Below are positions 2,791 through 46,658 of a stretch of 64,000 bases of DNA, piece after piece; position 1 is the stretch's first letter; each line of letters starts with the position of its first letter. Under the pieces are notes generated by a model. The model searched no databases and was not told the origin of the DNA. It saw only the letters and a program-made list of their open reading frames with translations. The position numbers and the translations under genes were made by a program. The stretch covers positions 26,233 through 90,232 of the forward strand of contig JBEKOM010000007.1 in the NCBI GenBank assembly GCA_049521795.1, in the 5' to 3' direction. This DNA comes from Candidatus Bathyarchaeia archaeon. Its GTDB lineage: Archaea > Thermoproteota > Bathyarchaeia > Bathyarchaeales > Bathycorpusculaceae.

Positions 2791-2890
2791 GTTTGGGGTA
2801 AAGTTTTATCCAACCAACCAACCATTACGGACGACGACGGACGACGACGGGCCAACGACGGACGACGGAAACGATAAACGCACGACGGAG
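2791..2890 (+). repeat. dispersed palindromic site GGGTAAAGTTTTATCC with CAAC and GACG low-complexity arm (copy a)
   Basis: Near-identical cores at 4846, 26181, 39106(rc), 39306, 40124(rc), 41057(rc), 44904 and 46622. Confidence 0.85.
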
Positions 2891-3190
2891 GATGGAAGGG
2901 AGGATGGAACAAAAGTGCTTTTCAACGTTAAGAAATGTATATCTTAAGCTCTTCTTAAGACGTACATTTCACAAACAGGGATGGACGGTGCTCTTACTTC
3001 ATGTGCGAAAGTGTAAGAGAATTGAGTAAAAGGCTTTATGCCACTTGCCAATGAACTTCTGCCGATAGGAATGTGTCGCGCGCGCTTGAAGTCTATCTGG
3101 GATATGACCAAGAAGCACAAGATCAAGCAATGGAGATCAGTGAATGATTTCGCGCGCTAAAATTGCTGAAGCATCTTGCGCGCGCTAAAA

Positions 3191-3307
3191 GTCTACGGAG
3201 AGCAAATAGAGCATTTGAATCCAGAAGAGCTTGCCAATCTAGTCAAGATCTGCGGTTTTCTTATGCAGACCAAAGTCTACCTATTCTGGAAGACCTGCGA
3301 TAGGTAG
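3191..3307 (+). pseudogene. 3' remnant of a proviral ABC-ATPase/GNAT gene
   Basis: Translates VYGEQIEHLNPEELANLVKICGFLMQTKVYLFWKTCDR*; KICGFLMQTKVYLFW is identical to the C-terminus of 50187..51650. Starts right after a GCGCGCGC run. Confidence 0.9.
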
Positions 3308-3348
3308 TTTCCCGACCTCAGATACAACGTGTGCGGTCGCTCTTTGCT

Positions 3349-3522
3349 CTAGTCTATCTCGCCAGACCCCTCACATCTTGGGCAGGTAACTTCTCCAGAA
3401 CCGCCACAACGACTGCATTGCTTTGTGTGGTCACTAAGCAAATCGACCTTCTCACCATATCCGCTGCAGCTCTTGCAGCTGACAGTCCCTTTGCCATCAC
3501 AGCGAGGGCATGTTCTGACCAT
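3349..3522 (-). CDS. 57 aa DnaJ-type zinc-finger protein (4x CxxCxGxG)
   Basis: Manual translation MVRTCPRCDGKGTVSCKSCSGYG...QCSRCGGSGEVTCPRCEGSGEID*; below the ORF-track cutoff. Confidence 0.85.
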   Translation of the reverse strand: MVRTCPRCDGKGTVSCKSCSGYGEKVDLLSDHTKQCSRCGGSGEVTCPRCEGSGEID

Positions 3523-3669
3523 TATCGTTCACCATGTCTACATTGGCATGCAGTATAACTGCATTTATGATTTTCTATATTCCCAAGTATTGAGCTAGAC
3601 ACGTGGAAGAGCAGACATCAACGACCGATAGCGTGCGCGTTAACTTGACCAACTCTCTTTTCGGTAGCG

Positions 3670-4722
3670 CTAGCTGGTCAGTTCCTTGATTTTCTTGAAA
3701 ATGTCTTGAGCATAAATCTTTGTTCCGCAATGATCACATCCAGTTTCATTTCCTTCACTTGGCATATTGACGGGTCCATTACAATGAGGACACCTCAGCG
3801 TTGTCAATACCATTCCTCCTTTCTCCATCAACGATCTAAGTGAAGAGAAATCCAGCACAATCGACTTTTTCTCCTTCTGTAGGATAATCTTGTCTCTAAA
3901 GTCCTTCTTAATAGATGACCCACCATCATATGTGTACTTCACATTGTCCGCATAGACATACACATTATCGGATCCGTTGATGGCAAAATCCTGAATGGAT
4001 TGCAGCGCAAATTCCCTCTCTGGCTTGATAGATTTGACTTCGGATAACTGGAGAGCAAAATCCAGCGCATTTGGCATTGATCCATCCTTCTTCGCAAAAA
4101 ACTCTCTTTTCAAAACAGCAAGCCTCTGATTGGTGAGAACATATATGCATTCGCCAGAATAGAATAGATCGCCCTCGCCCTCATTTGCGGTCTTCACTAT
4201 GTATTCTCCAGCTTTCAAGGCCACTTGGTCTCTCCATGGTGGAGGTGGCGGTCTAATGATCGTGCCGGGCGCACGCGGAGCAAGTCCATTCTCTTGTTTG
4301 TAGGCAGTTTCGAGGCTTTCGGCCAGCCTCTCTTCTGAAAAATCAGCAAAGGAAAGGCGTATTTCGTCAAACTTGCTGGTCTCACTATGAGGCCAGATCC
4401 GTATGAAGTCAGCGTGAATGTCCAATGGGATAATACTCGTTTCTCCAGGACCTAAGTCTGCTGTCCAAGAATTTTCCTTGTTCTTCCAGAACCGCAGATC
4501 TTCCCTCTTGTAGTTAAACTCGTAAATCTTGAGTTTGTAGCCAACTCCTTTGCAGAATTCGTTACAGACTTTCTTGATGGTTCGACTGTATTGTCTGATC
4601 GCTTGGTTTTTCTTCTCGATCTCTTGTACCACTTTCTCTTCTTTTTCTCTTTCAAGCCTCTGCGCGTCTTCTTTGAGATTTCTGAGGCGGTCCCGAAAGC
4701 TCATTTCTTTCACTTCCATCAT
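3670..4722 (-). CDS. hypothetical protein: N-terminal coiled coil, PH-like middle, C-terminal zinc ribbon
   Basis: 350 aa ORF; YVLTNQRL (PH-like), CPHC...CDHC and a PPPPP linker. Confidence 0.7.
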   Translation of the reverse strand: MMEVKEMSFRDRLRNLKEDAQRLEREKEEKVVQEIEKKNQAIRQYSRTIKKVCNEFCKGVGYKLKIYEFNYKREDLRFWKNKENSWTADLGPGETSIIPLDIHADFIRIWPHSETSKFDEIRLSFADFSEERLAESLETAYKQENGLAPRAPGTIIRPPPPPWRDQVALKAGEYIVKTANEGEGDLFYSGECIYVLTNQRLAVLKREFFAKKDGSMPNALDFALQLSEVKSIKPEREFALQSIQDFAINGSDNVYVYADNVKYTYDGGSSIKKDFRDKIILQKEKKSIVLDFSSLRSLMEKGGMVLTTLRCPHCNGPVNMPSEGNETGCDHCGTKIYAQDIFKKIKELTS

Positions 4723-4800
4723 TCACGATATTCGACTGACGACTTATTTATTGTTAATGGAGGAGTTCAAAGCGCAGCGCGCGGTGCGCGCGCGATACCT

Positions 4801-4861
4801 GTCCACCAACCGTCCGTCGTGGTCGTCGTCGTCCGTCGTTGGTTGGGGTAAAGTTTTATCC
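4801..4861 (+). repeat. dispersed palindromic site (copy b), GTC arm on the left side
   Basis: CGTCCGTCGTTGGTTGGGGTAAAGTTTTATCC; the arm is the reverse complement of the right arm of copy a. Confidence 0.85.
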
Positions 4862-4894
4862 TTACTCAGTGCACTTGTCGGGTAGGGATTTCAA

Positions 4895-5590
4895 GTGACC
4901 ATGGAGATTTTTCCGTTTTCTCTTGGGTTTAATGATTGTTACGTTGTCCAGGATCAAGGCGTCATAATGATTGATGCTGGTGTGCCTGGTAAAAAAACTG
5001 ATTTCGTAAGAGCGATGAAGAATATTCGAATGGAACCCCAAGACATCAAGCTAATTGTTATTACGCATGGGCACCCAGACCACATGGGTTCTGCCAAGGA
5101 CATAAAAGAAATCACGGGAGCTAGAATCGCTATGCATCAACTGGACAAGGTGTGCCTCGAAACTGGAACATGGAATACCACGGGACACAGGCTCAAGGGC
5201 ACAGGTTTTTGGAGCTCGATAGCTGCAGGAATATCCAATTCATTTGTCGACCTGCGCCATTCCAAAGTTGCCGCTTGCGACGTAGAAGTCACCATTGATG
5301 ACACAGGTGCGGACTTGGCAAATTATGGAATTCATGGGCAAGTGGTCTACACTCCTGGACACGCCGTAGGGTCACTTAGTGTGCTCTTGGATTCAGGAGA
5401 GGCTTTTGTCGGAGATCTTGCGATGAACAAGCTTCCGTTGAGACACAATCCAGGGCTACCGGTCTTAGCCGACGACATGGAGAAGGTAAGGGAAAGCTGG
5501 AGAAAATTGTTGAAACTCGGTGTTACAACGGTCTACCCTGGACATGGAAAACCCTTCTCAGTGGAAGTCATAGAAAAGGTTTTGAAGTAG
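4895..5590 (+). CDS. MBL-fold metallo-hydrolase
   Basis: THGHPDH, TPGH, GD and PGHG motifs. Confidence 0.92.
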   Translation: MTMEIFPFSLGFNDCYVVQDQGVIMIDAGVPGKKTDFVRAMKNIRMEPQDIKLIVITHGHPDHMGSAKDIKEITGARIAMHQLDKVCLETGTWNTTGHRLKGTGFWSSIAAGISNSFVDLRHSKVAACDVEVTIDDTGADLANYGIHGQVVYTPGHAVGSLSVLLDSGEAFVGDLAMNKLPLRHNPGLPVLADDMEKVRESWRKLLKLGVTTVYPGHGKPFSVEVIEKVLK

Positions 5591-5787
5591 CGCGCGCTTC
5601 GAGGGGTCGTGTGGAATCCAAATCGTATGAAGAATGTTGATGTGCTCTCCGTTTTTGGTCCTGGAAACCCGCTGCCGTTCTTAGGCTCAATATTTCGGGT
5701 CAGTTCTGGCAATTCATAACGTTTTAGTGGCTCTGGCTCAGAAGTGAGTGCAGCGTTCGACGCGTTTGACGAGAGAACCGTGATGGC

Positions 5788-5988
5788 ATGTTAAAAGTCA
5801 AAGTTAGCGGGAATTTCTTGAAGAAGCTTGTGAAGATCAGTTGCATAGTTCAGCTTGCAAACGCGTTCATGGACTATTTTCTGTGGGTGACTGTTGGCTA
5901 CCACGTTCCCTCTTGGACGCTTGCCACTTTAGTCGTCGGGTACAGTGTTCTGTTGTTGTCGTATGATAGACTGATATCCGAGGCTTAG
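5788..5988 (+). CDS. small membrane protein
   Basis: 66 aa with two hydrophobic segments. Confidence 0.45.
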   Translation: MLKVKVSGNFLKKLVKISCIVQLANAFMDYFLWVTVGYHVPSWTLATLVVGYSVLLLSYDRLISEA

Positions 5989-6124
5989 CCTGCGGAGTTT
6001 CCGTCCGATTCTACTGACATGAAACCGCTCCAACTAGCATCTTTTACTAGTGGGCACGTTGCGGTCAGCTTGCCTTTCGTGCATCAAAACTGTTCTTAGG
6101 TGTTCGCGTTGCTGGAGAAGTTCC

Positions 6125-6244
6125 TCACTTAGCTTTAACAACTTCTTTGCTACAGATGGAGCACAAATCGCAGTCCAGTATTTGAATGAGTTCGCAGGGC
6201 TCTAATTCGCGTCCACACCTATCGCAGAAGATCTTTCTAACCAT
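6125..6244 (-). CDS. 39 aa zinc-finger microprotein
   Basis: MVRKIFCDRCGRELEPCELIQILDCDLCSICSKEVVKAK*; CxxCG...DLCxxC. Confidence 0.6.
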   Translation of the reverse strand: MVRKIFCDRCGRELEPCELIQILDCDLCSICSKEVVKAK

Positions 6245-6672
6245 GCATGTCATCAACCCAAACCGTCTGACAGGGACACTGAACAATCTTGGACGCCACG
6301 TTAAAAAGGCATATTCCCAAGCCGCAACATCTGAGTCAACATGGCCTCGTCATGTCTGAGTCAAATAGAAGATTGTTCCATAAGCTATAAGTGATCAAAA
6401 CTGTACTAAGGAATGTAAATGAGGGAAATGGTCTGTCACTTCGATGGGAGAAAGGAGAGAAGGGAGCAGAAATTAATTCTTCCATTTCCCTCATTCACTT
6501 CCGCTACTTCATGCATATCTTGCTTTTAAATTTTTTGTCTGTTTTTTGAATTCTATTCTCAAAAAAATGACAAGAAAGTGCTTTTAGCTCATGGTTTGCC
6601 CGGTTTCTTGTTTGAATTTCTCCTTTTCCATGAAAAATGCGTGTAGGCCATGCTTAAGACGGCCACGTAATC

Positions 6673-7230
6673 CTAACTGAATTCTCGTAGTATCTGCTCA
6701 ACTGTCATTGTCTTCGCGTTGTAGATTTCTTTCAAGTATTTGAGTCCTTGTTCATGGTCTTCCTGGGTGAAGGCTTCGACTCCGTCTTCTGCGACTGTGA
6801 TCTTGTATCCTCTGAAGAAAGCGTCCGCAGCTGTGTGTCTGACACATATGTTCGTGTGCAAGCCTGTGAGGATCACGGTCTTGACTCCTTCTCCGTGGTA
6901 CAAGCCTCTCAGCAGCATGTCTAAGCCAGTTTCGTGGAAGCCGCTGTACGTTCTCTTTTCGACGACATAATCCTTCTTGGTGGGTCTCAGCGCCGGAATC
7001 ACTTCTGCTCCAGCAGTGCCCTTTATAGCGTGTTTTCCCCACTTCGCAACGACCTCCTCATCTAGGGGAAGATGCGCATCGTTGCTATAGATAATTGGCA
7101 CTCCGTGTTTGCGGGCGGCCACGATAAGTCTTCTCAGGTCTGGAATTATGTGCAACGCTCTCTCGCACTTTAAGTCTCCAGTGACGAAGTCGTTGAGCAT
7201 GTCAAGAACTATTACGGTTTTTCTGTCCAA
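6673..7230 (-). CDS. isochorismatase/nicotinamidase-family cysteine hydrolase
   Basis: Catalytic D-K-C triad in LDMLNDF, EKRTYSGF and TNICVRHT. Confidence 0.92.
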   Translation of the reverse strand: MDRKTVIVLDMLNDFVTGDLKCERALHIIPDLRRLIVAARKHGVPIIYSNDAHLPLDEEVVAKWGKHAIKGTAGAEVIPALRPTKKDYVVEKRTYSGFHETGLDMLLRGLYHGEGVKTVILTGLHTNICVRHTAADAFFRGYKITVAEDGVEAFTQEDHEQGLKYLKEIYNAKTMTVEQILREFS

Positions 7231-7290
7231 TAGAATCGTGCTCCTGAAACCATCTGAATGAAAAGGGACGAAAAATAGTTTATGGTAGAC

Positions 7291-8364
7291 TCATCTTGCA
7301 GTCTCCAAACTGTAGAACCCATCAGTGAACTTCTCCGACACGCGTTGCTTCACAAGCACGCTGTCTTCGATTCGGACGCCTCCGAAACCTGGAATGTATA
7401 TGCCCGGTTCGTCCGTTACTACGTTTCCCACGGCTAGCCTGTCCTTGCTGATCGGAGACAACCCTGGGCCTTCGTGAACCTCCAACCCTACTCCGTGACC
7501 CAATCCATGGTTGAAATACTCACCGTAACCTGCATCCTCTATTATCTTGCGGGCCGCTTGATCTACGTCTTTTCCTCGTGCTTTGGCCCTTATTGCCCGA
7601 TAAGCCTCTTCTTCGGCTGCCTTCACGACCTCGTAGAGTTTCTCCTGCTTGTCTGATGGTTCGCCAGCGACGAAGGTCCTTGTCATGTCAGAACAGTAAT
7701 ACTCGTAAATTGCCCCGATGTCAACGACTACCAGATCGCCCTTGCGGATTTTTCTCTCAGCGCAGCCACCGTGAGGGTATGCAGAGCGAATGCCCGAGGC
7801 CACGATCGTGTCAAACGCTGTTCCGTAGCCTCCTTTCTTCCGCATTGCGTACTCGATTTCGGCTGCGACCTCGACCTCAGTCACGTCAGGCTTTATTGTT
7901 TCGTAAGCGGCTTTCATGCCTGCGACGGTTATTTCCCCAGCCTTTCGCATGCGGCTGAGTTCCTCGTTGTCCTTTACCTTACGCAGTCCGCGGACGAGGT
8001 CTCCTTGAGCTTTCAGTCTTGCGTGTCCACGAATGGCTTTTGCTAGGAGACGGTGGAGTTCGTAGCTGAGCGCGTCTGACGCGAGTTTCTTGACTTTCAA
8101 CGCCTTGAGACCTGGGCCGATTTTCTCACCGAGTTTTTGGCCTCGTTTGAGGAGCTCAACCTCGAACCCTTTCGCTTCTGCCTTTGTCTGCTCGTAGTTG
8201 ACGCCGTACACGTAGATCGTGTTTTCCCCTTTCTTCGGAATCACAAGGCACATTGCGCCGGGGGTTCCAGTTAAATACAGCAGATTAGACTCGTCTGCCA
8301 CAAGAAATGCATCAAAATCTTTCTTTTCAAAGGCTAGTTCTTTAAGAGCATCGATCCTCTTCAA
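7291..8364 (-). CDS. Xaa-Pro peptidase (M24 family)
   Basis: [28 protein letters not shown] and RIED metal ligands. Confidence 0.95.
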
Positions 8365-8427
8365 TGGTGCTCACCGCTATGAAAGAATCTCTTACTACAG
8401 GTTCTTGGCTAAAATGCTTTGCTCTTC

Positions 8428-8718
8428 TCAGCCGCCGCTGACCACCGGCATCAAGATAACGTGATCCCCGTTTTTGAGTTTAGTTTCAACGCCCTTTAGC
8501 TGGTTAAGGAGGAACCCGTTCACAGTGGCCATGAAGTTTGATTTCACGTCTGCGCCGCCAGATTCGTAGACAGCTTTCTTGAAGGGCTCCCCGTATTTTC
8601 CAGACAGCAACCCAAGCAGGTCGGCGATTGACGAGTCGTTTCTCATCTCAATTTCCTCTTGCCTCTTGTCGCCAGTCAGGTTCTTGATGTGTCCGAGGTA
8701 TTCAACCTTGACTTTCAA
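8428..8718 (-). CDS. MoaD/ThiS/SAMP ubiquitin-like protein
   Basis: Beta-grasp pattern ending PVVSGG; TTG start at 8718. Confidence 0.9.
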   Translation of the reverse strand: MKVKVEYLGHIKNLTGDKRQEEIEMRNDSSIADLLGLLSGKYGEPFKKAVYESGGADVKSNFMATVNGFLLNQLKGVETKLKNGDHVILMPVVSGG

Positions 8719-9054
8719 CGCTGGACACCGATCTCTTCTATGCAATCCTAGAGTCAATATCGTTATATATTCGTTTCAGTCGTCGCCTCGCAGAGAGGTC
8801 GTGCGCAAAAGACCGCATTCAAAGACAAGCGACGGCCCCCTCCATCTTCCCAAGCCAAGTTGAACTTCTGACTTGAGAGCCTTCACCATAGGTGGGTAGA
8901 TGAAATGGGAGGGAAACCGCCGAACACAGATATACGAGGAACATCTCAAGATACTTACCGTTAGCTGGGGTTCTTCTTTCGTCCATCAGGAACGTTCATT
9001 TAAACAATTCTTTTATGTTTGCCGAATAGTCTAGTTTCTAGGTGCCTTCGATTG

Positions 9055-10734: not shown

Positions 10735-11285
10735 CCGACCAAGAGAAGCGGCTCTCCCTCGCTCACTGAGGAGCCATCAGAAACGTAGATTTCTTTCACC
10801 GCGCCGGCCTTGGACGCGGTTATTTCGTTTTCCATTTTCATGGCTTCGATGACACAGAGCACTTGGCCCGCCTTGACTTCGTCGCCCTTCTTCACGTTAA
10901 CCTTAACTATCTTGCCCGTCATCGGCGCGGTTATGCCGCCTTCAACAGCCTGTCTGTTTGCAGCTGCTCTCTTTGTCGGCGTTGCCACAACCGGCTCAAA
11001 CGCAGTTAGAGAAGCTTTTCTCGCAGGCACTTTGACCTCGGCTTTGAACGTTGCTTCCTCAACTCTCACCGAGAACTCTTTCCCGCGATCTATTCTGGGC
11101 AATTCGACGTGGTAGTTCTTGTTATCTACTTTCAGAGTGAACGGTTTTTCGAAGTCCGGTGCGCTGGTCACGAATTCGACGCTGCGAGTCTTGCCGTCCA
11201 CTCTGATACTGAAAGAGCTTTGGCCAGTTCTTGTCACCTCGACCTTTTTGGGCTTGTCGTCAATGAAAACTTCGAGCTCTGGCAT
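10731..11285 (-). CDS. biotin carboxyl carrier protein
   Basis: EAMKMEN biotinylation motif. Confidence 0.95.
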
Positions 11286-11287
11286 CC

Positions 11288-12832: not shown

Positions 12833-12896
12833 CGCTGGCTACCTCTGCAGTCTGCTAGGACTAGGAATGTGAAAAGTGAGTTGAAGGTGTATTAAT

Positions 12897-23665: not shown

Positions 23666-25834
23666 ATGAAAGAAAAGGAAGTGGTTCTTCAAATCCTCGG
23701 AATGCACTGCACGGCCTGCGCAACGGGCATCGAATCAGGCCTCAAGAGACTTGACGGCGTGATAGAGGCTGGGGTGAACTTCGCGACTAAGGAAGCCGTG
23801 GTGAAGTATGACGAGGACAAGGTAACTCTGGACAAGATCAAAGCAGCGGTCAAGAGAGGCGGGTACGAAGCGGTTGAACGGGTTGAGGACGTCAGCGAGA
23901 AGCGCAGAGAAGAAGTCCGGGAAAGAATGCTGCTCTTCTTCATCGGCCTGGCCCTCACGGTTCCGATCGTCATCATCACTTACTTCACGGCGTTTTCTCA
24001 GAAGAACATCGTGCTTCTGGCGTTGGCCACGCCTGTTCAGTTCATAGTTGGCTGGCACTTCTACAGAGGGGCTTACAGCTCGGTCAGAAACCGTTTCGCA
24101 GACATGAACGTGCTCGTGGCCTTGAGCTCCTCGGTCGCGTACGTCTACTCGGCCTACGTCACGTTCTTTGAGCCCGGCGAAATGGGCTTTTTTGAAGCTG
24201 CAGCCATCGTCGTGACAACGATAACGTTAGGCATGCTTCTTGAAGACATGGCTGTTGAGAGAACGGGCGACGCGATAAAGAAGCTCATGTCAATTCAGCC
24301 GAAAACGGCCACGGTCGTCCGAGACGGAGAGGAGAAGGAAGTCTCGGTCGATGACGTTCAGGTCGGTGACACCGTCGTAGCCAAGCCTGGAAACAGAATT
24401 CCAGTCGATGGAACAGTCGTTGACGGCCACACGTACCTTGACGAGTCGATGGTAACGGGCGAATCGGTTCCTGTTGAGAAGAACGTCGGGGACACGGTCT
24501 TCAGCGGCACGATCAACAAGACGGGCACAGTGAAGTTTCAAGCAGAAAAAGTCGGCTTGGAGACGACTCTGGCTCAAATAGTGCGCTTAGCCCGTGAAGT
24601 GCAGGCAAGTAAGGCTCCGATTCAGAGGATCGCAGACAAGGTTGTCAACGTCTTCGTCCCCGTTGTCGTTGCAATATCGATTCTGACTTTCACCGTGTGG
24701 TTCTTCGTCTTCAAAGATCAGGCCTTGGCCCTGACCACGACGGTTGCTGTCTTGGCCATATCGTGCCCATGCGCGTTAGGCATAGCAACGCCCGCTGCGA
24801 TAATGATAGGCGTCGGCAAGGGAGCGGAGAACGGCGTCCTCATCAAGAACACTGCGGTTCTCGAGGTCGTGAAGAACCTTGACACGGTGGTTTTTGACAA
24901 GACAGGCACATTGACTAGAGGCAAGCTGGACGTGACAGACGTCGCAGCAGAGGACAAGAAGGGTCTTCTCATGGTTGCCGCGGTGGCTGAAAAATGGTCT
25001 GAACACCCCATAGGCCAGGCAATCGTCAAGAAAGCTGAGAGCGAAGGAATCAGCCTTTCCGAACCAGAAGCGTTTGAAGCATTGCCAGGCTTCGGCGTCA
25101 CCGCACAAGTCAAAGGCAAAAAAGTGCTGATCGGAAATCGCGCCTTGATGAGAAACAACAACGTTTCAGTCACGCGGTTAGAAAGCGAAATCGAAAAGCT
25201 CGAAGGCGAAGGCAAAACCGTCCTCATAGTCGCGGTCGAAGGAGCAGCCGCAGGCGCATTAGCCGTGTCTGACACGGTGAAAGAACATTCAAAGGAAGCG
25301 ATAAACACTCTGCAAGAGATGGGCTTGAAGGTTGCCATGCTCAGCGGCGACACGAAGAGAACCTCAGCAGCGATTGCCAAGCAGTTAGGCGTCGACACCG
25401 TCATCGCGGAAGTCGTGCCAGCCGAGAAGGTTGAGGAGATCAAGAAGCTTCAGGCCAAGGGACGCTTCGTCGCCATGGTCGGCGACGGAATAAACGATGC
25501 CCCCGCCATCACACAGGCAAACGTAGGCATAGCCATCGGCAGCGGAACCGACATCGCCATCGATTCAGGAGACATCGTCCTAATCAAGGATGACCCACGC
25601 GACGTTGCCACGAGCATAGAGCTGAGCAGAAAAACGCTGGCCAAGATAAGGCAGAACCTGTTCTGGGCCTTCTTCTACAACGTCATAATGATCCCCCTCG
25701 CCGCCGGCGTCCTGCACCCTTCACTCGGCGTTCTGATCCCGCCCGAAGCCGCTGCAACTTCGATGATACTCAGCGACATCACCGTCGTCGGAAACTCGAT
25801 GCTGCTGAGAAGGTTCAAACCTCAGAAAAAGTGA
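23666..25834 (+). CDS. copA: copper-translocating P1B-type ATPase
   Basis: GMHCTAC metal-binding domain, TGES, CPC, DKTGT, HP, GDGINDAP and YN. Confidence 0.95.
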   Translation: MKEKEVVLQILGMHCTACATGIESGLKRLDGVIEAGVNFATKEAVVKYDEDKVTLDKIKAAVKRGGYEAVERVEDVSEKRREEVRERMLLFFIGLALTVPIVIITYFTAFSQKNIVLLALATPVQFIVGWHFYRGAYSSVRNRFADMNVLVALSSSVAYVYSAYVTFFEPGEMGFFEAAAIVVTTITLGMLLEDMAVERTGDAIKKLMSIQPKTATVVRDGEEKEVSVDDVQVGDTVVAKPGNRIPVDGTVVDGHTYLDESMVTGESVPVEKNVGDTVFSGTINKTGTVKFQAEKVGLETTLAQIVRLAREVQASKAPIQRIADKVVNVFVPVVVAISILTFTVWFFVFKDQALALTTTVAVLAISCPCALGIATPAAIMIGVGKGAENGVLIKNTAVLEVVKNLDTVVFDKTGTLTRGKLDVTDVAAEDKKGLLMVAAVAEKWSEHPIGQAIVKKAESEGISLSEPEAFEALPGFGVTAQVKGKKVLIGNRALMRNNNVSVTRLESEIEKLEGEGKTVLIVAVEGAAAGALAVSDTVKEHSKEAINTLQEMGLKVAMLSGDTKRTSAAIAKQLGVDTVIAEVVPAEKVEEIKKLQAKGRFVAMVGDGINDAPAITQANVGIAIGSGTDIAIDSGDIVLIKDDPRDVATSIELSRKTLAKIRQNLFWAFFYNVIMIPLAAGVLHPSLGVLIPPEAAATSMILSDITVVGNSMLLRRFKPQKK

Positions 25835-26160: not shown

Positions 26161-26268
26161 TGGGTCTTGGGGTTTTGGGTGGTAAAGTTCTATCCAACCC
26201 ACCAACAACGGACGACGACGGACTACGACGACCACGAACCACGACGACGACCACGACGGACGACGGTT
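26161..26268 (+). repeat. dispersed palindromic site (copy c) with GACG arm
   Basis: GGGGTTTTGGGTGGTAAAGTTCTATCCAACCCACCAACAACGGACGACGACGG... Confidence 0.85.
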
Positions 26269-31321: not shown

Positions 31322-31372
31322 GCTTGTGACCCCAAAACGTTAGCGTCTCAGTGCAAGTCTACGCTTCAGGAA
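31322..31372 (+). repeat. dispersed repeat, copy 2
   Basis: GCTTGTGACCCCAAAACGTTAGCGTCTCAGTGCAAGTCTACGCTTCAGGAA. Confidence 0.85.
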
Positions 31373-31468
31373 AACTTTCACCTGCATCAGTTTTCAAAGT
31401 CCTCCCTTTCTGGTGACGCGCGCGCTAAGCCTGCGCGCTACGACCAATTGAATTTCGAGTGGTAGTTC

Positions 31469-36467: not shown

Positions 36468-36497
36468 CTCGGCGCGCGCTAGGATATTCTGAAACAA

Positions 36498-37010: not shown

Positions 37011-37038
37011 CGCGCGCGGCGCGCGGGATCTCGCTAGT

Positions 37039-38901: not shown

Positions 38902-39047
38902 TGCGCATCATAACCTGTCTTAACATGCGCGGCTTATATTCGGATGTGAAAACAGAGTGTTCATCCTGACTCTGCGCACTCGCCCGGTCTAATATCCGCC
39001 TGCAGTCAGATAGTCAACTGTGACGGTGGGTCGTTAGAGCGCGCGCG

Positions 39048-39333
39048 CTAAGTAAGTATAGTAGAGTAAGTCAGAGAGTCGCAGTCGTAGAAGGTTTGGG
39101 TTTGGGGATAAGACTTTACTCCAAAACCCCAAAATGCGCCCAGTAATATCGAACTATCTGATTTTCCCTGTTTTGATAAGAAGAGCATAGTCGAGTGTGC
39201 TTCGCGCGCGCGACAAAAACCCGAAAAGGTAAGCGGCATATTCGCCACCGGCGGTGCCATGAAAGGCTAGTGGCCAGTTGTGCGCGTGACGGTGTTGGTT
39301 GGTTGGGGCAAAGTTCTACCCAAGCGCGCGCGC
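39048..39333. repeat. two palindromic sites (copy d reverse, copy e forward) among CG runs
   Basis: GGATAAGACTTTACTCCAAAACCCC at 39105 and GGTTGGGGCAAAGTTCTACCC at 39301. Confidence 0.7.
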
Positions 39334-39437
39334 TAGCTCTGTTGTTTGCTCAATACCTGAGAAACGAAAAACAAACATGGATTCCCAGAATTGTCAATTT
39401 GAATTAATCTATTTACGCGCGCCCTTCTCTTTGCGTA

Positions 39438-39665
39438 TCAGAACCAACTACGCTTTTTCTTAGCGTGAAGCGATGAATGGTCTCTTCTACTCATAACAGT
39501 CAAATTGCTCTTTCTGAAATTGCTCTTGTTCCCATCTATGTGGTGGACAACTCTTCCCTTTCCTATCCGACCCCCAATCATATTCGATGCTACACTCCTA
39601 TGCACTAATTTCCTGCTATCGCGCCATCTTGGGTAGCCTTTCTTGTCTTTGTATGTGTTCCCCAT
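39438..39665 (-). CDS. small stand-alone HNH endonuclease
   Basis: VHR...VVHHIDGNKSN...SNL...H. Confidence 0.85.
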   Translation of the reverse strand: MGNTYKDKKGYPRWRDSRKLVHRSVASNMIGGRIGKGRVVHHIDGNKSNFRKSNLTVMSRRDHSSLHAKKKRSWF

Positions 39666-40203
39666 AGTCACACCCAAGGACACTACGTGTTGTCCTTACT
39701 TAAGTAGCGCGCGCAGTTAGGGACTGGAATGTTTGATGACGTCATCTCTGTCAACTTCTAACTGTTCATCCCTTGCTCTAAAGACAGTTTCATTCATTAT
39801 TACTACAACCCATCCTAGCATCCTACGGCAGACGTTAATGTGTCCCATTGGTATCGAAGAACAATTTCGAGGAAAAACGTAATATGATTTATGAATCTGG
39901 AAAATTTATTAGAAGTTAAGACTAGACTGTCACGTGCGCGTCAAATAGCGCGCGCTGTGACGGCTGATTTCGGGATATATCTCCACTTTATTTGTTTGCA
40001 GGCGAGAGCCTCTATGTGGACATCTGGTACTGTTATCATTTAGGCACGCCGTATTCACACCTACCAAAAACCACCGTACAGCTTCACGGCTAGCTCGGAA
40101 GCTCCAGCGTCGTTAATTTTCTTGATAAAACTCTGCCCAAAACCACCTTGTGTTTACACAAGTCATAAAACTGAAGCATAGGGTACGAATACAATGATGC
40201 AAA

Positions 40204-40957
40204 TTGGAAGATGTTCAGAGACTTGAACAGTACTGGCATAGACTACTCTTTAACTTTCCTCAAACTAAGGATGTGAAAGGAGCAGTCATTTCATATTACC
40301 CTGCGCTTCCCATTCCTCAATTCAATTCTGCTGCAGACATCAACGTCAACGAGGATGAAGCCGAAGACCTGCTGAACAGAGTAACGGAACACTTTCAATC
40401 ATTAGGCTCTAGTTTTGTTCGTTTTCGAATTACCCCGTCCAAAAACGTTCGGGTCTTTTCTTGAGAGTCATGGATTTGAGAAGAAAGAAGAGGAGTCAAT
40501 AATGGTGTTCAAAGGAGGGCAGTTGGAAGATAAACTGAACCGTGAGGTGGAAGTGAGGGAAATATCTGAAAGTGAAGTAGATGTCGGTAACAGGCTTGCG
40601 TTCACAGTGTTCGAATTTCCAATTGAGTTGAAAAAAGAGTTTGATAAATTCGCACTTGATTGGATGCAAAAAGGAGGAAAATACTTTGTGGGCTATGTTG
40701 ATGGAAAACCTGTCGGAACCAGCTTCTTATTTTCCTTGATGAAAACTGGAGGAATATTCACCGTAGGAACCTTGAGTGGATACAGGAACAGGGGCATCGG
40801 AACAACCTTGACCGTTGACGCCATAATGGAATCCATCAAAGAAGGAAACGACCTCCACACATTGCAGACAGAAAAGGGAGGAAATGCGGAAGTGCTCTAC
40901 AAAAAGGTCGGGTTTGAAGTTGACCACATCGCTTCATTGTACGTCAAGAAACTCTGA
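40204..40957 (+). pseudogene. GNAT acetyltransferase split by a frameshift near 40437
   Basis: The N-terminal ORF ends RITP and the other frame resumes RPKTFGSFLE...YRNRGIG...LYKKVGF. Confidence 0.75.
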
Positions 40958-41082
40958 TGTTGAAGACAATGTAGATGGAGATGGAGTTTAACCGCTATCA
41001 GCATCCCAATCTCAGGCTGTTTCTGTCACCCTTACAGCGTCATCGTTAACACACAAGATAAAACTTTACGCGCGCGCGAGCA

Positions 41083-41228
41083 TGCAACAAGCGAATGGAG
41101 GAACAACGAGCCTCGCAGACCTGAACGGCAACCCAATAGGCTCAGCCAACACAGAGACAACAGCAATGACATTACTACCTTACAATAATGAAGTTATTTC
41201 TAGGATGCAAAATCTAACTGAACTTTAG
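41083..41228 (+). pseudogene. probable C-terminal gene fragment
   Basis: MQQANGGTTSLADLNGNPIGSANTETTAMTLLPYNNEVISRMQNLTEL*, bracketed by CG runs at 41069 and 41237. Confidence 0.45.
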
Positions 41229-41260
41229 AGATTTAAGCGCGCGCGCTAAGTTCTCACATA

Positions 41261-41686
41261 GTGGTCAAAATGAATGAACCAGAACGAGACGTGAAATCGA
41301 TCTGTGAGCTTGAGTACAAAGCAAGGGAGGCTGCCAAGGCAAAGGATCTCGATCGATATGTCTCCTTCTATGCCGACGACGCTGTCTTGCTCTGGCCTGG
41401 AACACCGATGATCATTGGCCGTGCTGCGATCCGTAAGTTCATGCGAGTCTTTTTCTCAATGCCCGAATTCTCGCTCAGCTTTGAAACCGCCCGTGTAGAG
41501 GTGTCTCCATCCGGCGATTTCGCGTACACATGTGGTATAAACAAGGTGACTCTAGTGGACCTGAATGGCAAAAGAATGAAAGACAGTGGTAAGTATCTGA
41601 CCGTCTACAGGAAGCAGTCTGATGGTACATGGAAGGTCGTGGCGGACATGGGTAACTCCGATCTGCCAGCACTAGTTCCGGCGTAG
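41261..41686 (+). CDS. NTF2-like/SnoaL (DUF4440) protein
   Basis: YADDA...GRAAI...SGDFAY...GKYLTVYRKQSDGTWKV. Confidence 0.9.
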   Translation: MVKMNEPERDVKSICELEYKAREAAKAKDLDRYVSFYADDAVLLWPGTPMIIGRAAIRKFMRVFFSMPEFSLSFETARVEVSPSGDFAYTCGINKVTLVDLNGKRMKDSGKYLTVYRKQSDGTWKVVADMGNSDLPALVPA

Positions 41687-41699
41687 AATCAAGCTCACG

Positions 41700-42020
41700 C
41701 TAAACAATCGTGTGTTCCTCGAGCATTACCCATGTGCCTTTCCTCGTAAATTCCGCCGAGTCTGCCATGACTTTCTTAAAAGCAGGAGAGGACATCATTT
41801 TCTGAACAACCGCCATATTTTCGAACCAGAGCTCCGCTATACCCTGGTACCCAGGCTCCTCGCCCTCGGCAGACATAACGATGCTGACCACGTATTTCTT
41901 GAGCATATCACCGAATTGCTGTTTCGCCAATGGAGCATGCTTGGTCAACCAAAAGTTGACGAACTCATTCTTACTCATGCCCTCCTTCGCATACACCTTC
42001 ATCACAATCTTAACCACCAT
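41700..42020 (-). CDS. EthD-family protein
   Basis: GMSKNEF..FW...HAPL...GIAELWF. Confidence 0.88.
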   Translation of the reverse strand: MVVKIVMKVYAKEGMSKNEFVNFWLTKHAPLAKQQFGDMLKKYVVSIVMSAEGEEPGYQGIAELWFENMAVVQKMMSSPAFKKVMADSAEFTRKGTWVMLEEHTIV

Positions 42021-42204
42021 CCAGTTTTCACCTCCTCTCCATTCCTGTACTCCTATAGCGACCTACCTCAACGCTTTAAGAAACGTTCAGCCCCTGAAAG
42101 TATGTAAGATCGATTGATGGCGCGCGCGAGTGATGAGAAGAAGCCCGACCACTGGCGAACACTTAGCCTACAGGTATGTTGTTGAATAACCCAATTTGCC
42201 ACAA

Positions 42205-42573
42205 TTACTTCGTCCATGCCGCCGCGTTCAAAATTGTTTTCAGAACACCTTCTGCATCATCACGTATCTTATAACGAATAGAAAGCTGACCTGCCTCAGT
42301 CAATGATGGGACTTTTTCAACAATCTTGGCTTTCAAAAGCACTCTTAGGTGTTTCTCGACAGTCGACCTATGTCGATCGAGCCTCCTTGCGATTTCGCCT
42401 GGGTTTGAAACTCCCTGCCCTATGCACTCCAGAATTCGGAGTCGAGATTTGTCAGCAAGAGCCTTCAGAAACCTTTCAGTTGTCTCGTATCCGCTCATCA
42501 TTGACGCCTTTTCTTGAAGATTCAGTGTATTGCCTCCCAGCAAATAAATTTGCCCGTTGGCAAACAAAATCAC
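42205..42573 (-). CDS. ArsR-family HTH regulator
   Basis: LKALADKSRLRIL...STVEKHLRVL; start uncertain. Confidence 0.88.
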   Translation of the reverse strand: MILFANGQIYLLGGNTLNLQEKASMMSGYETTERFLKALADKSRLRILECIGQGVSNPGEIARRLDRHRSTVEKHLRVLLKAKIVEKVPSLTEAGQLSIRYKIRDDAEGVLKTILNAAAWTK

Positions 42574-42635
42574 TCAATCCTCTGGAAACCATTATCTCAA
42601 ACGAGACAGCAATACAGACTAGAACGTGATAACTT

Positions 42636-43655
42636 GTGTATCATCCAACGGTAAAAGGCACATACTACGACATGGGTCATAGGTATGGAACAGTCCTTCA
42701 CGGACACGGTTTCAAAGTTTCAAGCCAATCGAAAGAAAAACTCGATTTCGGTAGAGAATCTGAACCAGAAGTCAAACGCGTCTTTCCCGAGATCCTAGAG
42801 GAAATCAGAGGATTTGCAGACGCTTGTAACGCACCGTACGAGCAGCTGACAGCTTTCATGTGCAGTATCGGCGCCTTCAAAGCCGAACCCAACTGCAGTG
42901 TATTCGCTTCCTTCACAGGCTCCGACGTTGTGTTCGGCCGAAACTACGATTTCCTGTACAGTTTCAAAAAATACTCCGAAAGCTACCTAACTTGCCCCGA
43001 AAATGGTTACAGCAGTCTTGGCCACACAGACGTTTTCATTGGACGGGAAGACGGCATAAACGAGAAAGGTCTGGCCATAGCCATGACTGGAGTGAGTTCT
43101 CCAGGAAACCATCCAGGCGTAAGCTTCTGCCTTGCCATCCGATGCGTTCTCGACAAATGTGCCAACGTCGACGAAGGAGTCAGAGTTCTCGAAAACGTTC
43201 AGCACGTTTCAACTTTCAACTACCTTCTTGCCGACAAACGAGGAAACATTGCCGTAGTCGAAGCATCGCCCGATAAAGTACGAGTACGAAGACCCAACAA
43301 GGGCGAAGATTTCATTGTTTGTACAAACCATTTTGTCCATCCAGAGATGCAGGACAAGGAAGACCCCAACGCGAGAAGCACAACTGAATGGGATTCACAG
43401 CCAAGATACGCAACGATTTCGCGTATTCTAAAAGAAAACAGTGGAAAAGTCAACGTTAGACTTGCTGAAAGAATCCTGTCAAACCACAGTGGCTACGTCT
43501 GTTCGCATCAACAGAAAATAAGGTTAGGCACGATCTGGTCAGTCATCGCAACTTTGAACGCGCCTCAGATCCTGAGAGCAGAAGGACATCCATGCAAAGC
43601 AAGCTACAGACGCGACCTCCGACTTAACAAAGTCATCCAAGAGCGAAGAATGTAA
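42636..43655 (+). CDS. C45-family Ntn hydrolase/acyltransferase
   Basis: CS nucleophile, GRNYD, GINEKGL and TNHF. Confidence 0.9.
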   Translation: MYHPTVKGTYYDMGHRYGTVLHGHGFKVSSQSKEKLDFGRESEPEVKRVFPEILEEIRGFADACNAPYEQLTAFMCSIGAFKAEPNCSVFASFTGSDVVFGRNYDFLYSFKKYSESYLTCPENGYSSLGHTDVFIGREDGINEKGLAIAMTGVSSPGNHPGVSFCLAIRCVLDKCANVDEGVRVLENVQHVSTFNYLLADKRGNIAVVEASPDKVRVRRPNKGEDFIVCTNHFVHPEMQDKEDPNARSTTEWDSQPRYATISRILKENSGKVNVRLAERILSNHSGYVCSHQQKIRLGTIWSVIATLNAPQILRAEGHPCKASYRRDLRLNKVIQERRM

Positions 43656-43760
43656 CAAGCGCGCTAATCCCACTTGACAAAAGTTCGCTACTCTATTTTT
43701 TGGAAATCTTGAACGACGAACCAAAACGCGCGTGCTATATGCGGGGTCCTTGTTCCCATG

Positions 43761-44135
43761 CTAGGTCCTTGAGACTTCGCTTGCGCCTGTGTCCTTTTGG
43801 ACCACGCAGAAGAGGTTGCCATCGGGATCCTCTAGCACACGGAAGTCATCATCAGGCTCATACGTCTGGGGATGGCGGGTCGCTCCGATTTTGAGCAATC
43901 TCTTCACCTCATCCTCTCTGTTGTCGGTATAGAGGTCGAGGTGCAACCTACTCCGACCTAAGCGCTTCTCCTGGTCTCGGTTCAAAGACACGTTCGGATT
44001 TCTTCCCTCAGGATCACGAAGAACGACCCAGCCCTCCTTCGCAGGCTCTCTGGGGACGTAGTGGAGCGCCGCCTGCCAGAATGCCGACATCTTGTCGAAC
44101 TCACTACAATCGATAACGATCGAGCCGATTTTCAT
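43761..44135 (-). CDS. VOC/glyoxalase-family protein
   Basis: IVIDC...FW...RLHLDL...DPDGNLFC. Confidence 0.9.
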   Translation of the reverse strand: MKIGSIVIDCSEFDKMSAFWQAALHYVPREPAKEGWVVLRDPEGRNPNVSLNRDQEKRLGRSRLHLDLYTDNREDEVKRLLKIGATRHPQTYEPDDDFRVLEDPDGNLFCVVQKDTGASEVSRT

Positions 44136-44533
44136 TTCCCATCCTCCACCTTGCCTCCATCAACTCACGCTAAAATATCTTGCGATTCGAGGTTCTGTCA
44201 ACTTCTCATGGGATAGCCATACACGTTAACTGTCGTAGGATAGATGTTAAGCCAAAGTAAGATTCTGTTTCCAAACCAAACCAAATTTCAACGACTTCAG
44301 CATGATTCTGGGAAAGCAGGTTGAGTCACGTGTATGCTAGATTCAGCGTACATAGGGAGTTCTCATGGTATGGAAAAGAAGGCTAGTACTAGAAATCAAG
44401 ACCATAATAGGGCAGGAGCATAGGTAGTATCGGAATCGAGTATACGCTCTTTCAAGGGCGCATTTCGTCACAAGTGATTTAAGCTAAGAACAAGATAACA
44501 GGATTTTTGCGTTTTGGTTTGTAGGGAGGTGAG

Positions 44534-44884
44534 TTGAATATGACAAACTTTGTTGTCTTAATGAGTAAAGGGCCTTTCCATGGAGAAGCAGAATGGCCGT
44601 TTAGATTTGTTGATTTAGCACTTGACAATGGCCACAAAGTCCAAGTTTTCCTCGCAGAAGATGCTACTTGGATTGCAAAAAAAGGCCAACAATATGACGT
44701 TTATCCAAACTTAGAAGAATACATCAAAAATGCGGTCAAAAAAGGTGCAGAAATCAAAGTATGTGAAACCTGCAGAAAAAGACGAAATTTGAGCGAGAAA
44801 GATTATCTCCCAGGACTAGTAAAGGGGACAATGACAGGATTCATAGAGGCAGCAGCAAAAGCAGACAAAGTGCTAACATTTTAG
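44534..44884 (+). CDS. DsrE-family protein
   Basis: VFLAEDA...VCETC...ADKVLTF; SD GGAGGTGA. Confidence 0.88.
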   Translation: MNMTNFVVLMSKGPFHGEAEWPFRFVDLALDNGHKVQVFLAEDATWIAKKGQQYDVYPNLEEYIKNAVKKGAEIKVCETCRKRRNLSEKDYLPGLVKGTMTGFIEAAAKADKVLTF

Positions 44885-44891
44885 TAGGAAA

Positions 44892-45000
44892 GTTTGGGTT
44901 TGGGGGTAAAGTTTTATCTTTTTCTCGCTCTCATTCTTACGCTTACTCTACTACTCTCTACCCTTCACTCTCTCACTCTCTCTACACACACGCACACACA
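44892..45000 (+). repeat. palindromic site (copy h) with CT/CA low-complexity arm
   Basis: GTTTGGGTTTGGGGGTAAAGTTTTATC followed by CATTCTTACGCTTACTCTACTA... Confidence 0.75.
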
Positions 45001-45071
45001 TAGAAAAAACAGAGTCTATGAGTTTACGGAAAAGTTATAGCTCAACCGAAAGTGACTGTGTTGGTTGGTGA

Positions 45072-45623
45072 GTGGAGTTGCTTGAAGGCAAGAATGTGAA
45101 TCTGCGAATCATGGAGAAAGAGGATTTGCCACTTTTTGCAGAATGGTATAACAATCCAGAATTCTTGGGCGAAGCTCTTTTCCCAATTCAGAGGTCTATG
45201 ACAGAATCAGAAAAAGCATTTTTGGAACCTAATCCCTACGAATCAAAGAGGTTCATTATAGAGAAGAAAGATGGAACCAAAATCGGCACCATATCCCATT
45301 TCAACATGTTAAGCACCGTTGGGAAAGTGCTGGAGATAGGCTACGCCTTGATGCCAAGCGAAAGAGGAAAGGGCTGCTGCACCGAAGCTATACAGCTAAT
45401 GGTGGGCTATCTGTTTATCAGCAAAGAAACCCCTCGCATTCAAGCCCTTACGCTTGTCAAGAATGTTGCTTCACAGAGAGTTTTGGAAAGGGTAGGCTTC
45501 AAAAAGGAGGGTGTAATGCGGAAATGCTTTTACATTCGAGGAGAATGGTCAGACTTCGTAATCTTCAGCATTCTTAGAGAAGAATGGAAAGAACCAAAGA
45601 TACTAACAAGAACCGAGAAGTAG
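45072..45623 (+). CDS. GNAT acetyltransferase (RimJ/RimL type)
   Basis: EIGY...ERGKG...NVASQRVLERVGF..EG. Confidence 0.92.
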   Translation: MELLEGKNVNLRIMEKEDLPLFAEWYNNPEFLGEALFPIQRSMTESEKAFLEPNPYESKRFIIEKKDGTKIGTISHFNMLSTVGKVLEIGYALMPSERGKGCCTEAIQLMVGYLFISKETPRIQALTLVKNVASQRVLERVGFKKEGVMRKCFYIRGEWSDFVIFSILREEWKEPKILTRTEK

Positions 45624-45796
45624 AAAGGTTCTGTCTGTCATTAACACAGTAAGCGGTATTTGAGCTTCTTTTCTATCTGACATTCTTTTCATGATGTAGT
45701 CTTTAATACTGATTCACCTAGTCTTGTCTTCTAGGTATCAATAATGGTTGAGATACAGACTGTTTCTGGCGCGCGTGATGAAGGGGGCAAGCAGAT

Positions 45797-46563
45797 TGGA
45801 CCTTAGAGGTAAAACGCTGATCGTAACAGGAGCTTCAAGAGGAATCGGCCGAGCTTTAGCCTTAGAACTGGCTCAAAACGGTGTCAACCTTGTCTTGAAC
45901 GCCCGAAGCGAAGCACCCCTCGAGGAAGTGGCTACTGTTGCCCGAGGGAAAGGTGTGAAGACATTGACAGTAGTGGGCGATGCTGCGCTAGCCAGCAAAG
46001 CTCGGGAGATGGTGAAAGCCGCGGTTGGCATCGGCGAATTCATCGGTTTCATTCACAACGCGGGAACCGCTCATCCAGGTCCATTCTTGTACGAACTACC
46101 TGAAGCCATGTTCAAGAATGTCTGGCGAACCAACGTGTTAGCTGGTTACCAGATCGCGCGCTTCTCCTACCCAGAGCTGCGCCGAAGAAAGAGTGGCCTA
46201 GCGGTATTCTTTGGGTCGGGAGCCGCGAAGATGAACGTAGAAGGCATGGGAGCCTACTGCCTATCCAAGGCAGCCGAAGAACACTTGGCGAGGCAACTCG
46301 CCGCTGAGGCTCCAGAAATCACTTGTTTCGTGTACCGACCTGGAGTTGTCGACACTGAGATGCAGAAGGGTGCCCGCGAAGCAAAAGGCAGCGGGGCTGA
46401 GGTGTTACACCGAGTCTTCGGAGAGTTGAAGGAGCGAGGAAGCCTCCTAACTCCCGAAAAAGCCGCGCGAGGATTAGTGCAGATACTACAAGGAGACCCG
46501 CGCCACTTTCACGGCAAGATAGCTAGCTACGGCGAGATAGCTACCTACAAGGAGGGATTGTGA
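45797..46563 (+). CDS. short-chain dehydrogenase/reductase
   Basis: TGASRGIG, HNAG, YCLSK and PGVVDT; start approximate. Confidence 0.92.
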
Positions 46564-46658
46564 AAGTAGCGTGTGAATGCCAAGGGCTTTCTGCTCGTGT
46601 GTGTTGATGTTTGGCGCGCGCGTAAAGTTTTGCCCCCAAACCCAAACGAGCGCGCGCT

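Follow-up and report, generated by a model that had tools for sequence, protein, structure and literature searches.

A 16-bp quasi-palindrome conserved in Bathyarchaeia probably marks the junctions of a gene-cassette mosaic

Introduction

Bathyarchaeia are abundant and uncultured archaea, and to our knowledge almost nothing is known of gene exchange among them. A stretch of 64,000 nucleotides from the genome of a Candidatus Bathyarchaeia archaeon (genome G000, 2.44 Mb in 69 contigs, 48.6% GC; positions 26233-90232 of contig C7, hereafter the window) carries nine dispersed copies of the 16-bp quasi-palindrome GGGTAAAGTTTTATCC, hereafter the core, flanked by short modules that recur in different combinations. 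This raises the question of what an element does that combines a constant centre with interchangeable arms and is scattered among accessory genes. An original prediction, made from the window alone, proposed that such shuffling of arms is left behind by repeated site-specific recombination in an integron-like or dif-module-like cassette system.

This paper describes the conservation of the core, its position relative to breaks in homology between genomes, its gene context, and its relation to known cassette-boundary systems. The core is a real junction element, and it is apparently undescribed; literature searches at the level of titles and abstracts, on archaeal integrons and on mobile elements, palindromes, and recombination sites of Bathyarchaeia, gave no description of the motif. 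Comparison with related genomes supports the view that a gene-cassette mosaic has its breakpoints at these sites, and the 16-mer itself probably marks or guides the shuffling of genes, through a mechanism that is so far undescribed.

Results

Conservation of the core

With up to three mismatches allowed, the window contains nine matches to the core, compared with 0.41 on average and at most 4 in 100 shuffles, and the degenerate form GGRYARAGTTYTRYCC matched seven times against 0.09 expected. These are the nine copies originally predicted, four of which start 1-2 nt away from the positions first given (26180, 40123, 41056, and 46620; Table 1). G000 as a whole has 15 exact copies; at up to one, two, and three mismatches the counts rise to 26, 43, and 70, respectively. 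An iterated position weight matrix (PWM) found 62 sites in G000 at a score of at least 16, against 1 in the block-shuffled genome. In an alignment of 72 sites all 16 positions carry 1.3-2.0 bits, approximately 26 bits in total, and positions outside the 16-mer carry at most 0.66 bit. The asymmetry noted earlier at the centre of the core, AAAGTTTT, is genuine, with G8 in 72/72 and T9 in 71/72 sites, accompanied by G3 in 69/72 and T14 in 70/72.

The core does not form a hairpin. When folded as DNA together with 14-nt flanks, the nine copies were no more stable than shuffles (z-scores from -1.04 to +2.63), and the arms within a site complemented each other at 3.49 of 12 positions, compared with 4.06 of 12 for arms taken from random other sites. 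A hairpin or cruciform was rejected on these values, which are at the level of shuffled or random sequence.

All 10 same-genus genomes searched contain the core, with 20-38 copies at up to one mismatch in the more complete ones, and a reversed control pattern was absent from every same-genus genome. Genomes from other genera of the family hold 1-8 copies, exact 16-mers included, with the same arm grammar. Since exact copies and the same arm grammar recur in other genera, the core element is old and under constraint, with an expansion in this genus. Conservation extends across the class, as 46 of the 80 loci listed are titled Bathyarchaeia and together hold 99 unique core sites; public records with more than one copy bear the titles Candidatus Bathyarchaeia or Bathyarchaeota. 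In loci titled as other taxa, 34 sites were found as single matches in which the compositional skew of the arms described below was not seen, and these were read as chance occurrences of the 16-mer.

The arms are compositional and not sequence-specific. Short simple repeats (GGTTT, GGTT, GA or A-rich, GT, GC), or the complements of these, make up the arms in any combination, such that C is nearly missing from the top strand in the 10 nt upstream of the core and G is nearly missing in the approximately 10 nt downstream. In the 46 Bathyarchaeia loci, which derive from other species, positions -10 to -1 comprise 45% G, 43% T, and 4% C (99 unique sites), and positions +17 to +26 comprise 48% A, 33% C, and 7% G. 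The modules described in the window were recovered as predicted, as was their occurrence both left and right of the core: ACGGACGACG is the right-hand neighbor of copies a and c and, in inverted form, the left-hand neighbor of copy b; CCAAACCCAAAC lies to the right of the copies at 39106 (reverse strand) and 46620; and the CT-rich module CTTACTCTACTA lies to the right of those at 44904 and 39106.

Pairs of cores 22-43 nt apart, both inverted and direct, occur in three loci of other Bathyarchaeia (L207, L228, and L250) and in locus L159 (genome G018). Viral contigs contain 30 exact 16-mers, which by our own estimate is about the number expected by chance, a few multi-match contigs excepted; on viral contig L194 three cores are located just past the tail module of a provirus, beside the provirus end. 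In G001, a complete genome of the same genus, cores are mainly on the forward strand in the first 700 kb (11:2) and on the reverse strand beyond (7:23), although clusters of cores are not independent. The bias is matched by neither GC skew nor gene-strand bias, neither of which shows replichores.

Homology breaks at the core

G001 (2,346,764 bp) aligns with G000 over 1.59 Mb, with a median identity of 91% in blocks longer than 1 kb. In this comparison the ends of high-scoring segment pairs (HSPs) are accurate to a few nt only, and genes were called by a crude codon-usage open reading frame (ORF) caller. Cores are confined to accessory DNA: the colinear G000/G001 blocks contain none of the 41 intergenic cores, compared with 34.2% of 4000 random intergenic positions. 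Among these 41 cores, 29 lack G001 homology within 250 nt on either side, 10 have homology on one side only, and for the remaining 2 both sides are homologous to G001, but to separate places in it. The statement that all window copies are in accessory patches likewise holds, since neither of the two stretches that contain them (1498-6084 and 23729-46659) has a colinear counterpart in G001.

Flanks change at the core across genomes, as seen from homology blocks that end at cores and from homology that is one-sided. Six block ends were located at offsets of 0 nt (C3:62986), -1 (C11:89038), -3 (C1:552254), -9 (C3:166124), +11 (C1:552663), and -20 nt (C5:8440) from a core. The flanks of the core at C3:166124 are 9.3 kb apart in G001, where a G001-specific insert is bounded by a core and a degenerate GC run. 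One unit consisting of 409 bp between two cores is conserved at 89% in G001, where its neighbors differ on both sides. The next unit (C1:552666-553278; a core, a GNAT-type gene, and a core) recurs on contig C21 of another genome, G002, at 92% identity, with homology extending from core position 4 to core position 13 or 14 and with the outer letters of both cores replaced. From these limits of homology it follows that both junctions of the unit are inside the cores.

Homology of a flank abutting the core was always one-sided in a set of 154 sites from G000, G001, and other species, as none of 31 pairs shared both flanks. Nine of the flank homologies were left-only, 11 right-only, and 14 inverted; 3 of the 14 are trivial, arising from overlap of cores 25-29 nt apart, and the 11 non-trivial ones enter the 31.

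The first unit above also contains, at C1:552270-552662 on the reverse strand, an ORF of 38 codons with two CxxC pairs (zinc-ribbon-like), and ORFs this small in these islands are missed by ordinary gene calling.

These comparisons bear on the possibility that the core is a selfish miniature palindromic insertion, resembling a miniature inverted-repeat transposable element (MITE) or the repetitive extragenic palindromic (REP) sequences and bacterial interspersed mosaic elements (BIMEs), which has spread through intergenic DNA. REP and BIME sequences are dispersed intergenic palindromes combined with other short motifs into mosaics, and the core is likewise dispersed, intergenic, and mosaic with a small motif repertoire, in many near-identical copies that are randomly oriented relative to genes. 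In contrast to what such insertions would leave, there are no pairs of empty and filled orthologous sites, and a MITE was rejected on the grounds that 0/41 cores are colinear and 0/31 pairs share both flanks. The core moreover lacks a hairpin, is conserved over 16 bp without terminal inverted repeats plus a target-site duplication, and, unlike REP and BIME sequences, is always at a junction of unrelated DNA and has no Y1 transposase: the Y1/RAYT family (PF01797) was not found in G000 (98.75% complete) and was matched in six control genomes. This explanation is thus considered very unlikely. A separate repeat of approximately 140-180 bp at C1:551120-551303 (L005:1-140), found at least 20 times in G002 and several times in G001 with identities of 81-91%, looks MITE-like and is unrelated to the core.

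Depth in peat metagenomes is 20-50 times higher at the core than in the adjoining DNA, and the flanks of the core are diverse. At the copy at 44904, depths of 1372, 1183, and 492 were reached in peat metagenome contigs, compared with approximately 25 alongside in run X1, and the loose ends agree poorly on both sides (0.53-0.66); this diversity indicates that the core is present in many contexts. The metagenome evidence at this copy comprises depth and loose ends only, and individual joints (20-29-nt sides, 90% likeness) were left unused.

A second junction motif

Runs of alternating G and C punctuate the same regions. The motif GCGCGCGC matched 30 times in the window against 1.17 expected, with all matches at 3078-46657 (26 runs) and none in the provirus that occupies the right part of the window, and G000 as a whole contains 361 GC runs, of which 87% are intergenic. 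The palindrome AGCGCGCGCT is present in 92 copies in G000 and in 7-114 copies in ten other same-genus genomes searched, but in at most one copy in each other genus searched; the control TCGCGCGCGA gave 0-4 copies. One segment of the window's island is 98% identical to another species (exchanged unit in Table 1).

In the comparison of G000 with G001, an HSP end was scored when it was at most 2 nt from a GC run. The fraction of ends so placed was 11/16 for HSPs of at least 96% identity, 35/104 for those of 93-96%, 106/491 for those of 88-93%, and 32/234 for those of 80-88%, compared with 1.9% of random intergenic positions. Part of this enrichment could arise where GC runs, which often follow stop codons, are the final positions that can be aligned. 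Segments of high identity have, for the most part, non-syntenic neighbors, and it is on these cases that GC runs are argued to be true junctions. A coupling between GC runs and cores was unconvincing, as (GC)3 was present within 6 nt of 4/71 cores, compared with 2.7% of random intergenic positions.

Recombinases and known cassette systems

The original prediction placed the core near two established systems, and the corresponding explanation holds that it belongs to a true integron with divergent attC sites, or to Xer/dif modules under XerA. Integrons occur in Archaea, as outlined by Ghaly et al. (2022, Sci Adv), and G000 holds tyrosine recombinases. The likeness to integrons resides in arrays of short sites approximately 0.4-1 kb apart that bracket single small genes, in the exchange of units between species, and in a diverse cargo of adaptive type, comprising GNAT, glyoxalase, SnoaL, EthD, and SDR proteins as known from integrons.

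The defining features of integrons are nevertheless missing. No pair of attC R''..R' motifs (RYYYAAC/GTTRRRY, 40-125 nt apart) was present in 23728-47300, whereas 100 shuffles gave 3.43 on average. The two tandem tyrosine recombinases encoded in the window scored 62 and 53 bits with the XerA/integron-integrase model NF040815, for which the cut-off is 220 bits, and a scan of NCBIfam that covered these two of the ten tyrosine recombinase matches of G000 gave no integron-integrase model at E<=0.01. Integron membership was rejected in the absence of an IntI match for the two window proteins, of attC pairs, and of a single-strand fold. Whereas attC is conserved as a folded single strand, the core is conserved as a duplex sequence of approximately 26 bits, in a system without the R''/R' motif, IntI, or an attI adjoining an integrase. 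Integron cassettes are mostly promoterless and co-oriented from Pc, whereas the units between cores carry putative promoters of their own, are found in either orientation, and do not keep the polarity of the site.

A dif site is present once per chromosome, with an 11-6-11 architecture, in the account of Cortez et al. (2010). Membership of the Xer/dif family was rejected, as G000 has 62 sites of which the outer positions carry at most 0.66 bit, and there was no XerA-level match in the window. The specific arms of dif are 11 bp long around a 6-bp spacer, whereas the core is specific over only 16 bp, with varying simple repeats as outer arms. As far as the pdif modules of Acinetobacter plasmids are described in the sources consulted, they resemble the core in being multi-copy quasi-palindromes with an asymmetric centre, in having flanks that reshuffle accessory modules, and in that any enzyme would act in trans, unlinked to the sites; core-flanked units exchanged between genomes were observed here. 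The cores differ from pdif in being chromosomal and archaeal. Taken together, these tests largely refute membership of the integron or dif families, which is the least probable of the explanations considered, and this part of the original prediction was not supported. In function the core is similar to known cassette-boundary systems, but it does not pass the tests that define them.

Gene context and promoters

At a PWM score of at least 14, G000 has 64 sites, of which 46 are intergenic. The downstream gene is co-directional with the core in 26 of these 46 and the upstream gene divergent in 23, and core density per kb is 0.138 in convergent, 0.108 in divergent, and 0.084 in tandem spacers. With our own gene calls, no orientation or distance rule was found between cores and genes, so that the fixed spacing that would identify an ordinary operator was not seen. 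Proteins encoded beside 71 sites were singletons in 98 of 121 cases, the largest family having 3 members among the 121; a gene family recurring beside cores, such as a recombinase, was rejected on this basis.

These data bear on the main rival explanation, according to which the core is a promoter resembling a B recognition element (BRE) and TATA box, or else an operator through which accessory genes are regulated or silenced, and either just marks the boundaries of units or passively provides short homology between them. Core positions 2-15 match 11/14 of the BRE/TATA sequence RNWAAWTTTAWATR in the forward and 9/14 in the reverse direction, by our own alignment to what is a Sulfolobales consensus (bioRxiv 10.64898/2026.06.17.732947, as far as consulted). 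The core also resembles the units' putative promoter GAAAAGTTATAGC, the genome encodes three TBP paralogues, and the conserved asymmetry is as expected for TBP/TFB. Moreover, some genes start 28-76 nt downstream of a core in the same direction, as exemplified by a metallo-beta-lactamase-fold gene with its ATG at 4901, 39 nt downstream of copy b, for which the G002 homologue also has an upstream core.

A precedent for shuffling at repeated regulatory cassettes is offered by the promoter/stem-loop cassettes (PeSLs) of T4-type phages, as presented by Arbiol et al. (2010). In the features given there, PeSLs resemble the cores as promoter-like punctuation between small non-essential genes in hyperplastic regions, at which indels and replacements end. 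They differ in being longer combinations of promoter and terminator stem-loop that are co-oriented with genes and recombine by homology, whereas cores have 16 conserved bp, no stem-loop, and random orientation. A PeSL-type cassette was rejected, as there is no stable stem-loop and the arms are not mutually complementary.

Several observations weigh against a regulatory role for the core. Orientation follows no rule, the three classes of spacer hold cores at similar density, and the same flank can be present at either core end. A separate TATA-like box was located between core and start codon in 3/3 units inspected, with TTATATTT upstream of the 38-codon zinc-ribbon ORF and GAAAAGTTATAGC upstream of two GNAT-type genes; GGAAAAGTTATAGC, between the core at 44904 and a GNAT gene, is similarly read from its sequence as the unit's own putative promoter. 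The general TATA box of G000 is different (TTTAAATA or TTATATA, at -40 to -55), and housekeeping genes have no core. Finally, 16 bp would be short for homologous exchange. On balance, a regulatory core is regarded as unlikely, though with a real share of the probability. The stoperators of mycobacteriophages are a possible parallel to regulatory punctuation of this kind.

Features of the window

The coordinates of the features in the window are collected in Table 1. Housekeeping stretches at approximately 6-23.7 kb, encoding methylmalonyl-CoA mutase, a carboxyl transferase, and ribonucleotide reductase, separate two accessory regions. Homologues of the genes in the first are dispersed elsewhere in relatives, and the cargo of the second, the 23-kb island, includes GNATs, SnoaL/DUF4440, EthD, C45 acyltransferase-like, glyoxalase, DsrE, and SDR proteins. 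G001 (2087420-2087520) retains only approximately the first 100 nt of the Cu-ATPase gene at 23666-25834, which places the left edge of the island inside the 5' part of this gene.

The last copy of the core, at 46620, is approximately 0.8 kb from the two tyrosine recombinase genes, beyond which is a head-tailed provirus. The provirus is common to G001 at 77-86% identity, and both recombinase genes are missing from G001. More probably these recombinases are part of the neighboring provirus or integrated element and unconnected with the motif. A direct repeat of approximately 53 bp, GCTTGTGACCCCAAAACGTTAG..., at 31322-31374 and 46659-46711 flanks a segment of 15.3 kb, with a GC run before each copy; the right copy is the point where G001 homology resumes and adjoins the two recombinase genes. 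The repeat is a candidate att duplication left by tandem integration. Elsewhere in G000 (C2:9501-9730 and C3:187885-188110), the unit shared downstream of two cores has a tRNA-like T-arm, GGTTCGAATCC, together with GC runs, and an integrative element may have left it behind as a relic att site. Scans of the window for Rfam families and tRNAs gave no match.

The organism is not a halophile (median pI approximately 8), and searches of G000 for McrA and AmoA matched neither. Metagenome DNA runs containing the stretch derive from peat, wetland, and sediment.

Table 1. Positions of cores and other features in the 64,000-nucleotide window.
Feature	Positions	Strand	Description
Accessory patch 1	1498-6084	.	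Holds copies a and b; without colinear G001 block
Core, copy a	2796-2811	+	Exact GGGTAAAGTTTTATCC; right arm AACCAACCAACC, then ACGGACGACG simple repeat
Core, copy b	4846-4861	+	Exact; left arm is inverted CGTCCGTCG..GGTTGGTTG module
23-kb island	23729-46659	.	Not in G001; contains the other seven copies (c to i) and the majority of the 26 GC runs in the window
Core, copy c	26180-26195	+	2 mismatches; downstream of Cu-ATPase gene, within island absent from G001
Core	39106-39121	-	2 mismatches; arms TTTTGGGGTTTTG and CCAAACCCAAACC
Core	39306-39321	+	3 mismatches; GC run starts 2 nt beyond
Core	40123-40138	-	3 mismatches
Core	41056-41071	-	2 mismatches; 5' end fused to GC run (..CGCGCGC-GCGTAAAG..)
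Exchanged unit	42120-43663	+	98% identical to G002:C21, in different context; GCGCGC(GC) runs exactly at both ends
Core	44904-44919	+	1 mismatch
TATA/BRE-like GGAAAAGTTATAGC	45029-45042	+	30 nt upstream of GNAT start 45072, between core and gene; putative promoter
Core	46620-46635	+	3 mismatches; island right edge; GC runs at 46614 and 46650; G001 homology resumes at 46660
Two tandem tyrosine recombinase genes	47410-50150	-	421 and 492 aa, generic
Head-tailed provirus	50187-64000		Major head protein matched at 61748-62641, tape measure at 55646-57997

Discussion

The explanation that we prefer, although its chances are no better than evenly balanced, is that the core with its two simple-repeat arms is the junction element of a gene-cassette mosaic, at which breakage and joining are directed by a protein. 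The accessory islands of this peat lineage are built of units of approximately 0.3-1.5 kb, mostly single-gene and at least some with their own TATA-type promoter, separated by two short palindromic punctuations, namely the core and the (GC)n run of the AGCGCGCGCT type. Units have been reassorted between loci and species, with breakpoints at or inside both motifs. The core would serve as a recognition site in duplex DNA for a trans-acting protein, encoded by the host or by an element, that directs breakage and rejoining, and the process would be independent of orientation, such that units become joined to either core end. The mosaic of small units with conserved punctuation at its breakpoints is shown by the comparisons above, and the action of a protein at the core is inferred. 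Joining directed by a protein is favored by the conservation of approximately 26 bits across genera in otherwise unalignable DNA, and by a core that is duplex and unfolded, has junctions inside it, and is never present in conserved spacers.

A number of observations weigh against this explanation. The youngest exchanges, at 96% identity or more, end at GC runs and not at cores, and the core sequence has a BRE/TATA-like appearance that may point to a transcriptional role. A tyrosine recombinase is located beside only 2 of the approximately 10 core clusters in G000, and only one of the nine recombinases of G001 is within 1 kb of a core. The sequence-specific part extends only approximately 4-5 bp to each side of an AT-rich centre, and the arms of known tyrosine-recombinase sites are 9-13 bp long. 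In 11 of 31 pairs, a flank joined to one end of the asymmetric core at one site is joined to the opposite end at the other, including the case of a real gene (C5:8440 versus G001:864006). Neighboring cores within 3 kb in G000 and G001 were in the same orientation in 16 cases and in opposite orientation in 6 (p=0.05), a bias not seen again in other species, where 46 loci gave 26 same and 21 opposite.

The presence of flanks at either core end argues against reciprocal directional recombination, which would preserve polarity. Together with the lack of a travelling recombinase, the short specific part, and the unreproduced co-orientation, it indicates that this is not a classical directional site-specific system. 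The recombination proposed originally can therefore be retained as far as the breakpoints of a cassette mosaic are concerned, and not as directional site-specific recombination, for which the 11/31 either-end flanks and the absence of a linked recombinase are unfavorable.

A further proposal, which we consider improbable, is that the islands consist of units joined end to end, in which the 16-mer is the head-to-head junction of two ends that were joined by a dedicated, orientation-free joining or resolving enzyme, and AGCGCGCGCT is a second type of junction. Each end would consist of a G-strand repeat ((GGTTT)n, (GGTT)n, (GA)n, (GT)n, or (GC)n) running 5' to 3' into the 8-bp terminal half-site GG(G/A)TAAA(G/A). 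Such a cassette-capture system would differ from integrons, Xer modules, and transposons, and its geometry would be nearer to that of telomere-fusion junctions.

In the protein-directed explanation as in the regulatory one, the finding has consequences for the biology of Bathyarchaeia. Single-gene units of adaptive type reassort between species at two short motifs, a 16-bp site and a 10-bp palindrome, and these motifs point to a form of archaeal gene shuffling that is neither integron nor known transposon. If the core is a promoter or operator, it would be a rare case of regulatory punctuation shaping the mosaicism of archaeal genomes. If a dedicated enzyme exists, it would represent a new recombination system and possibly a tool.

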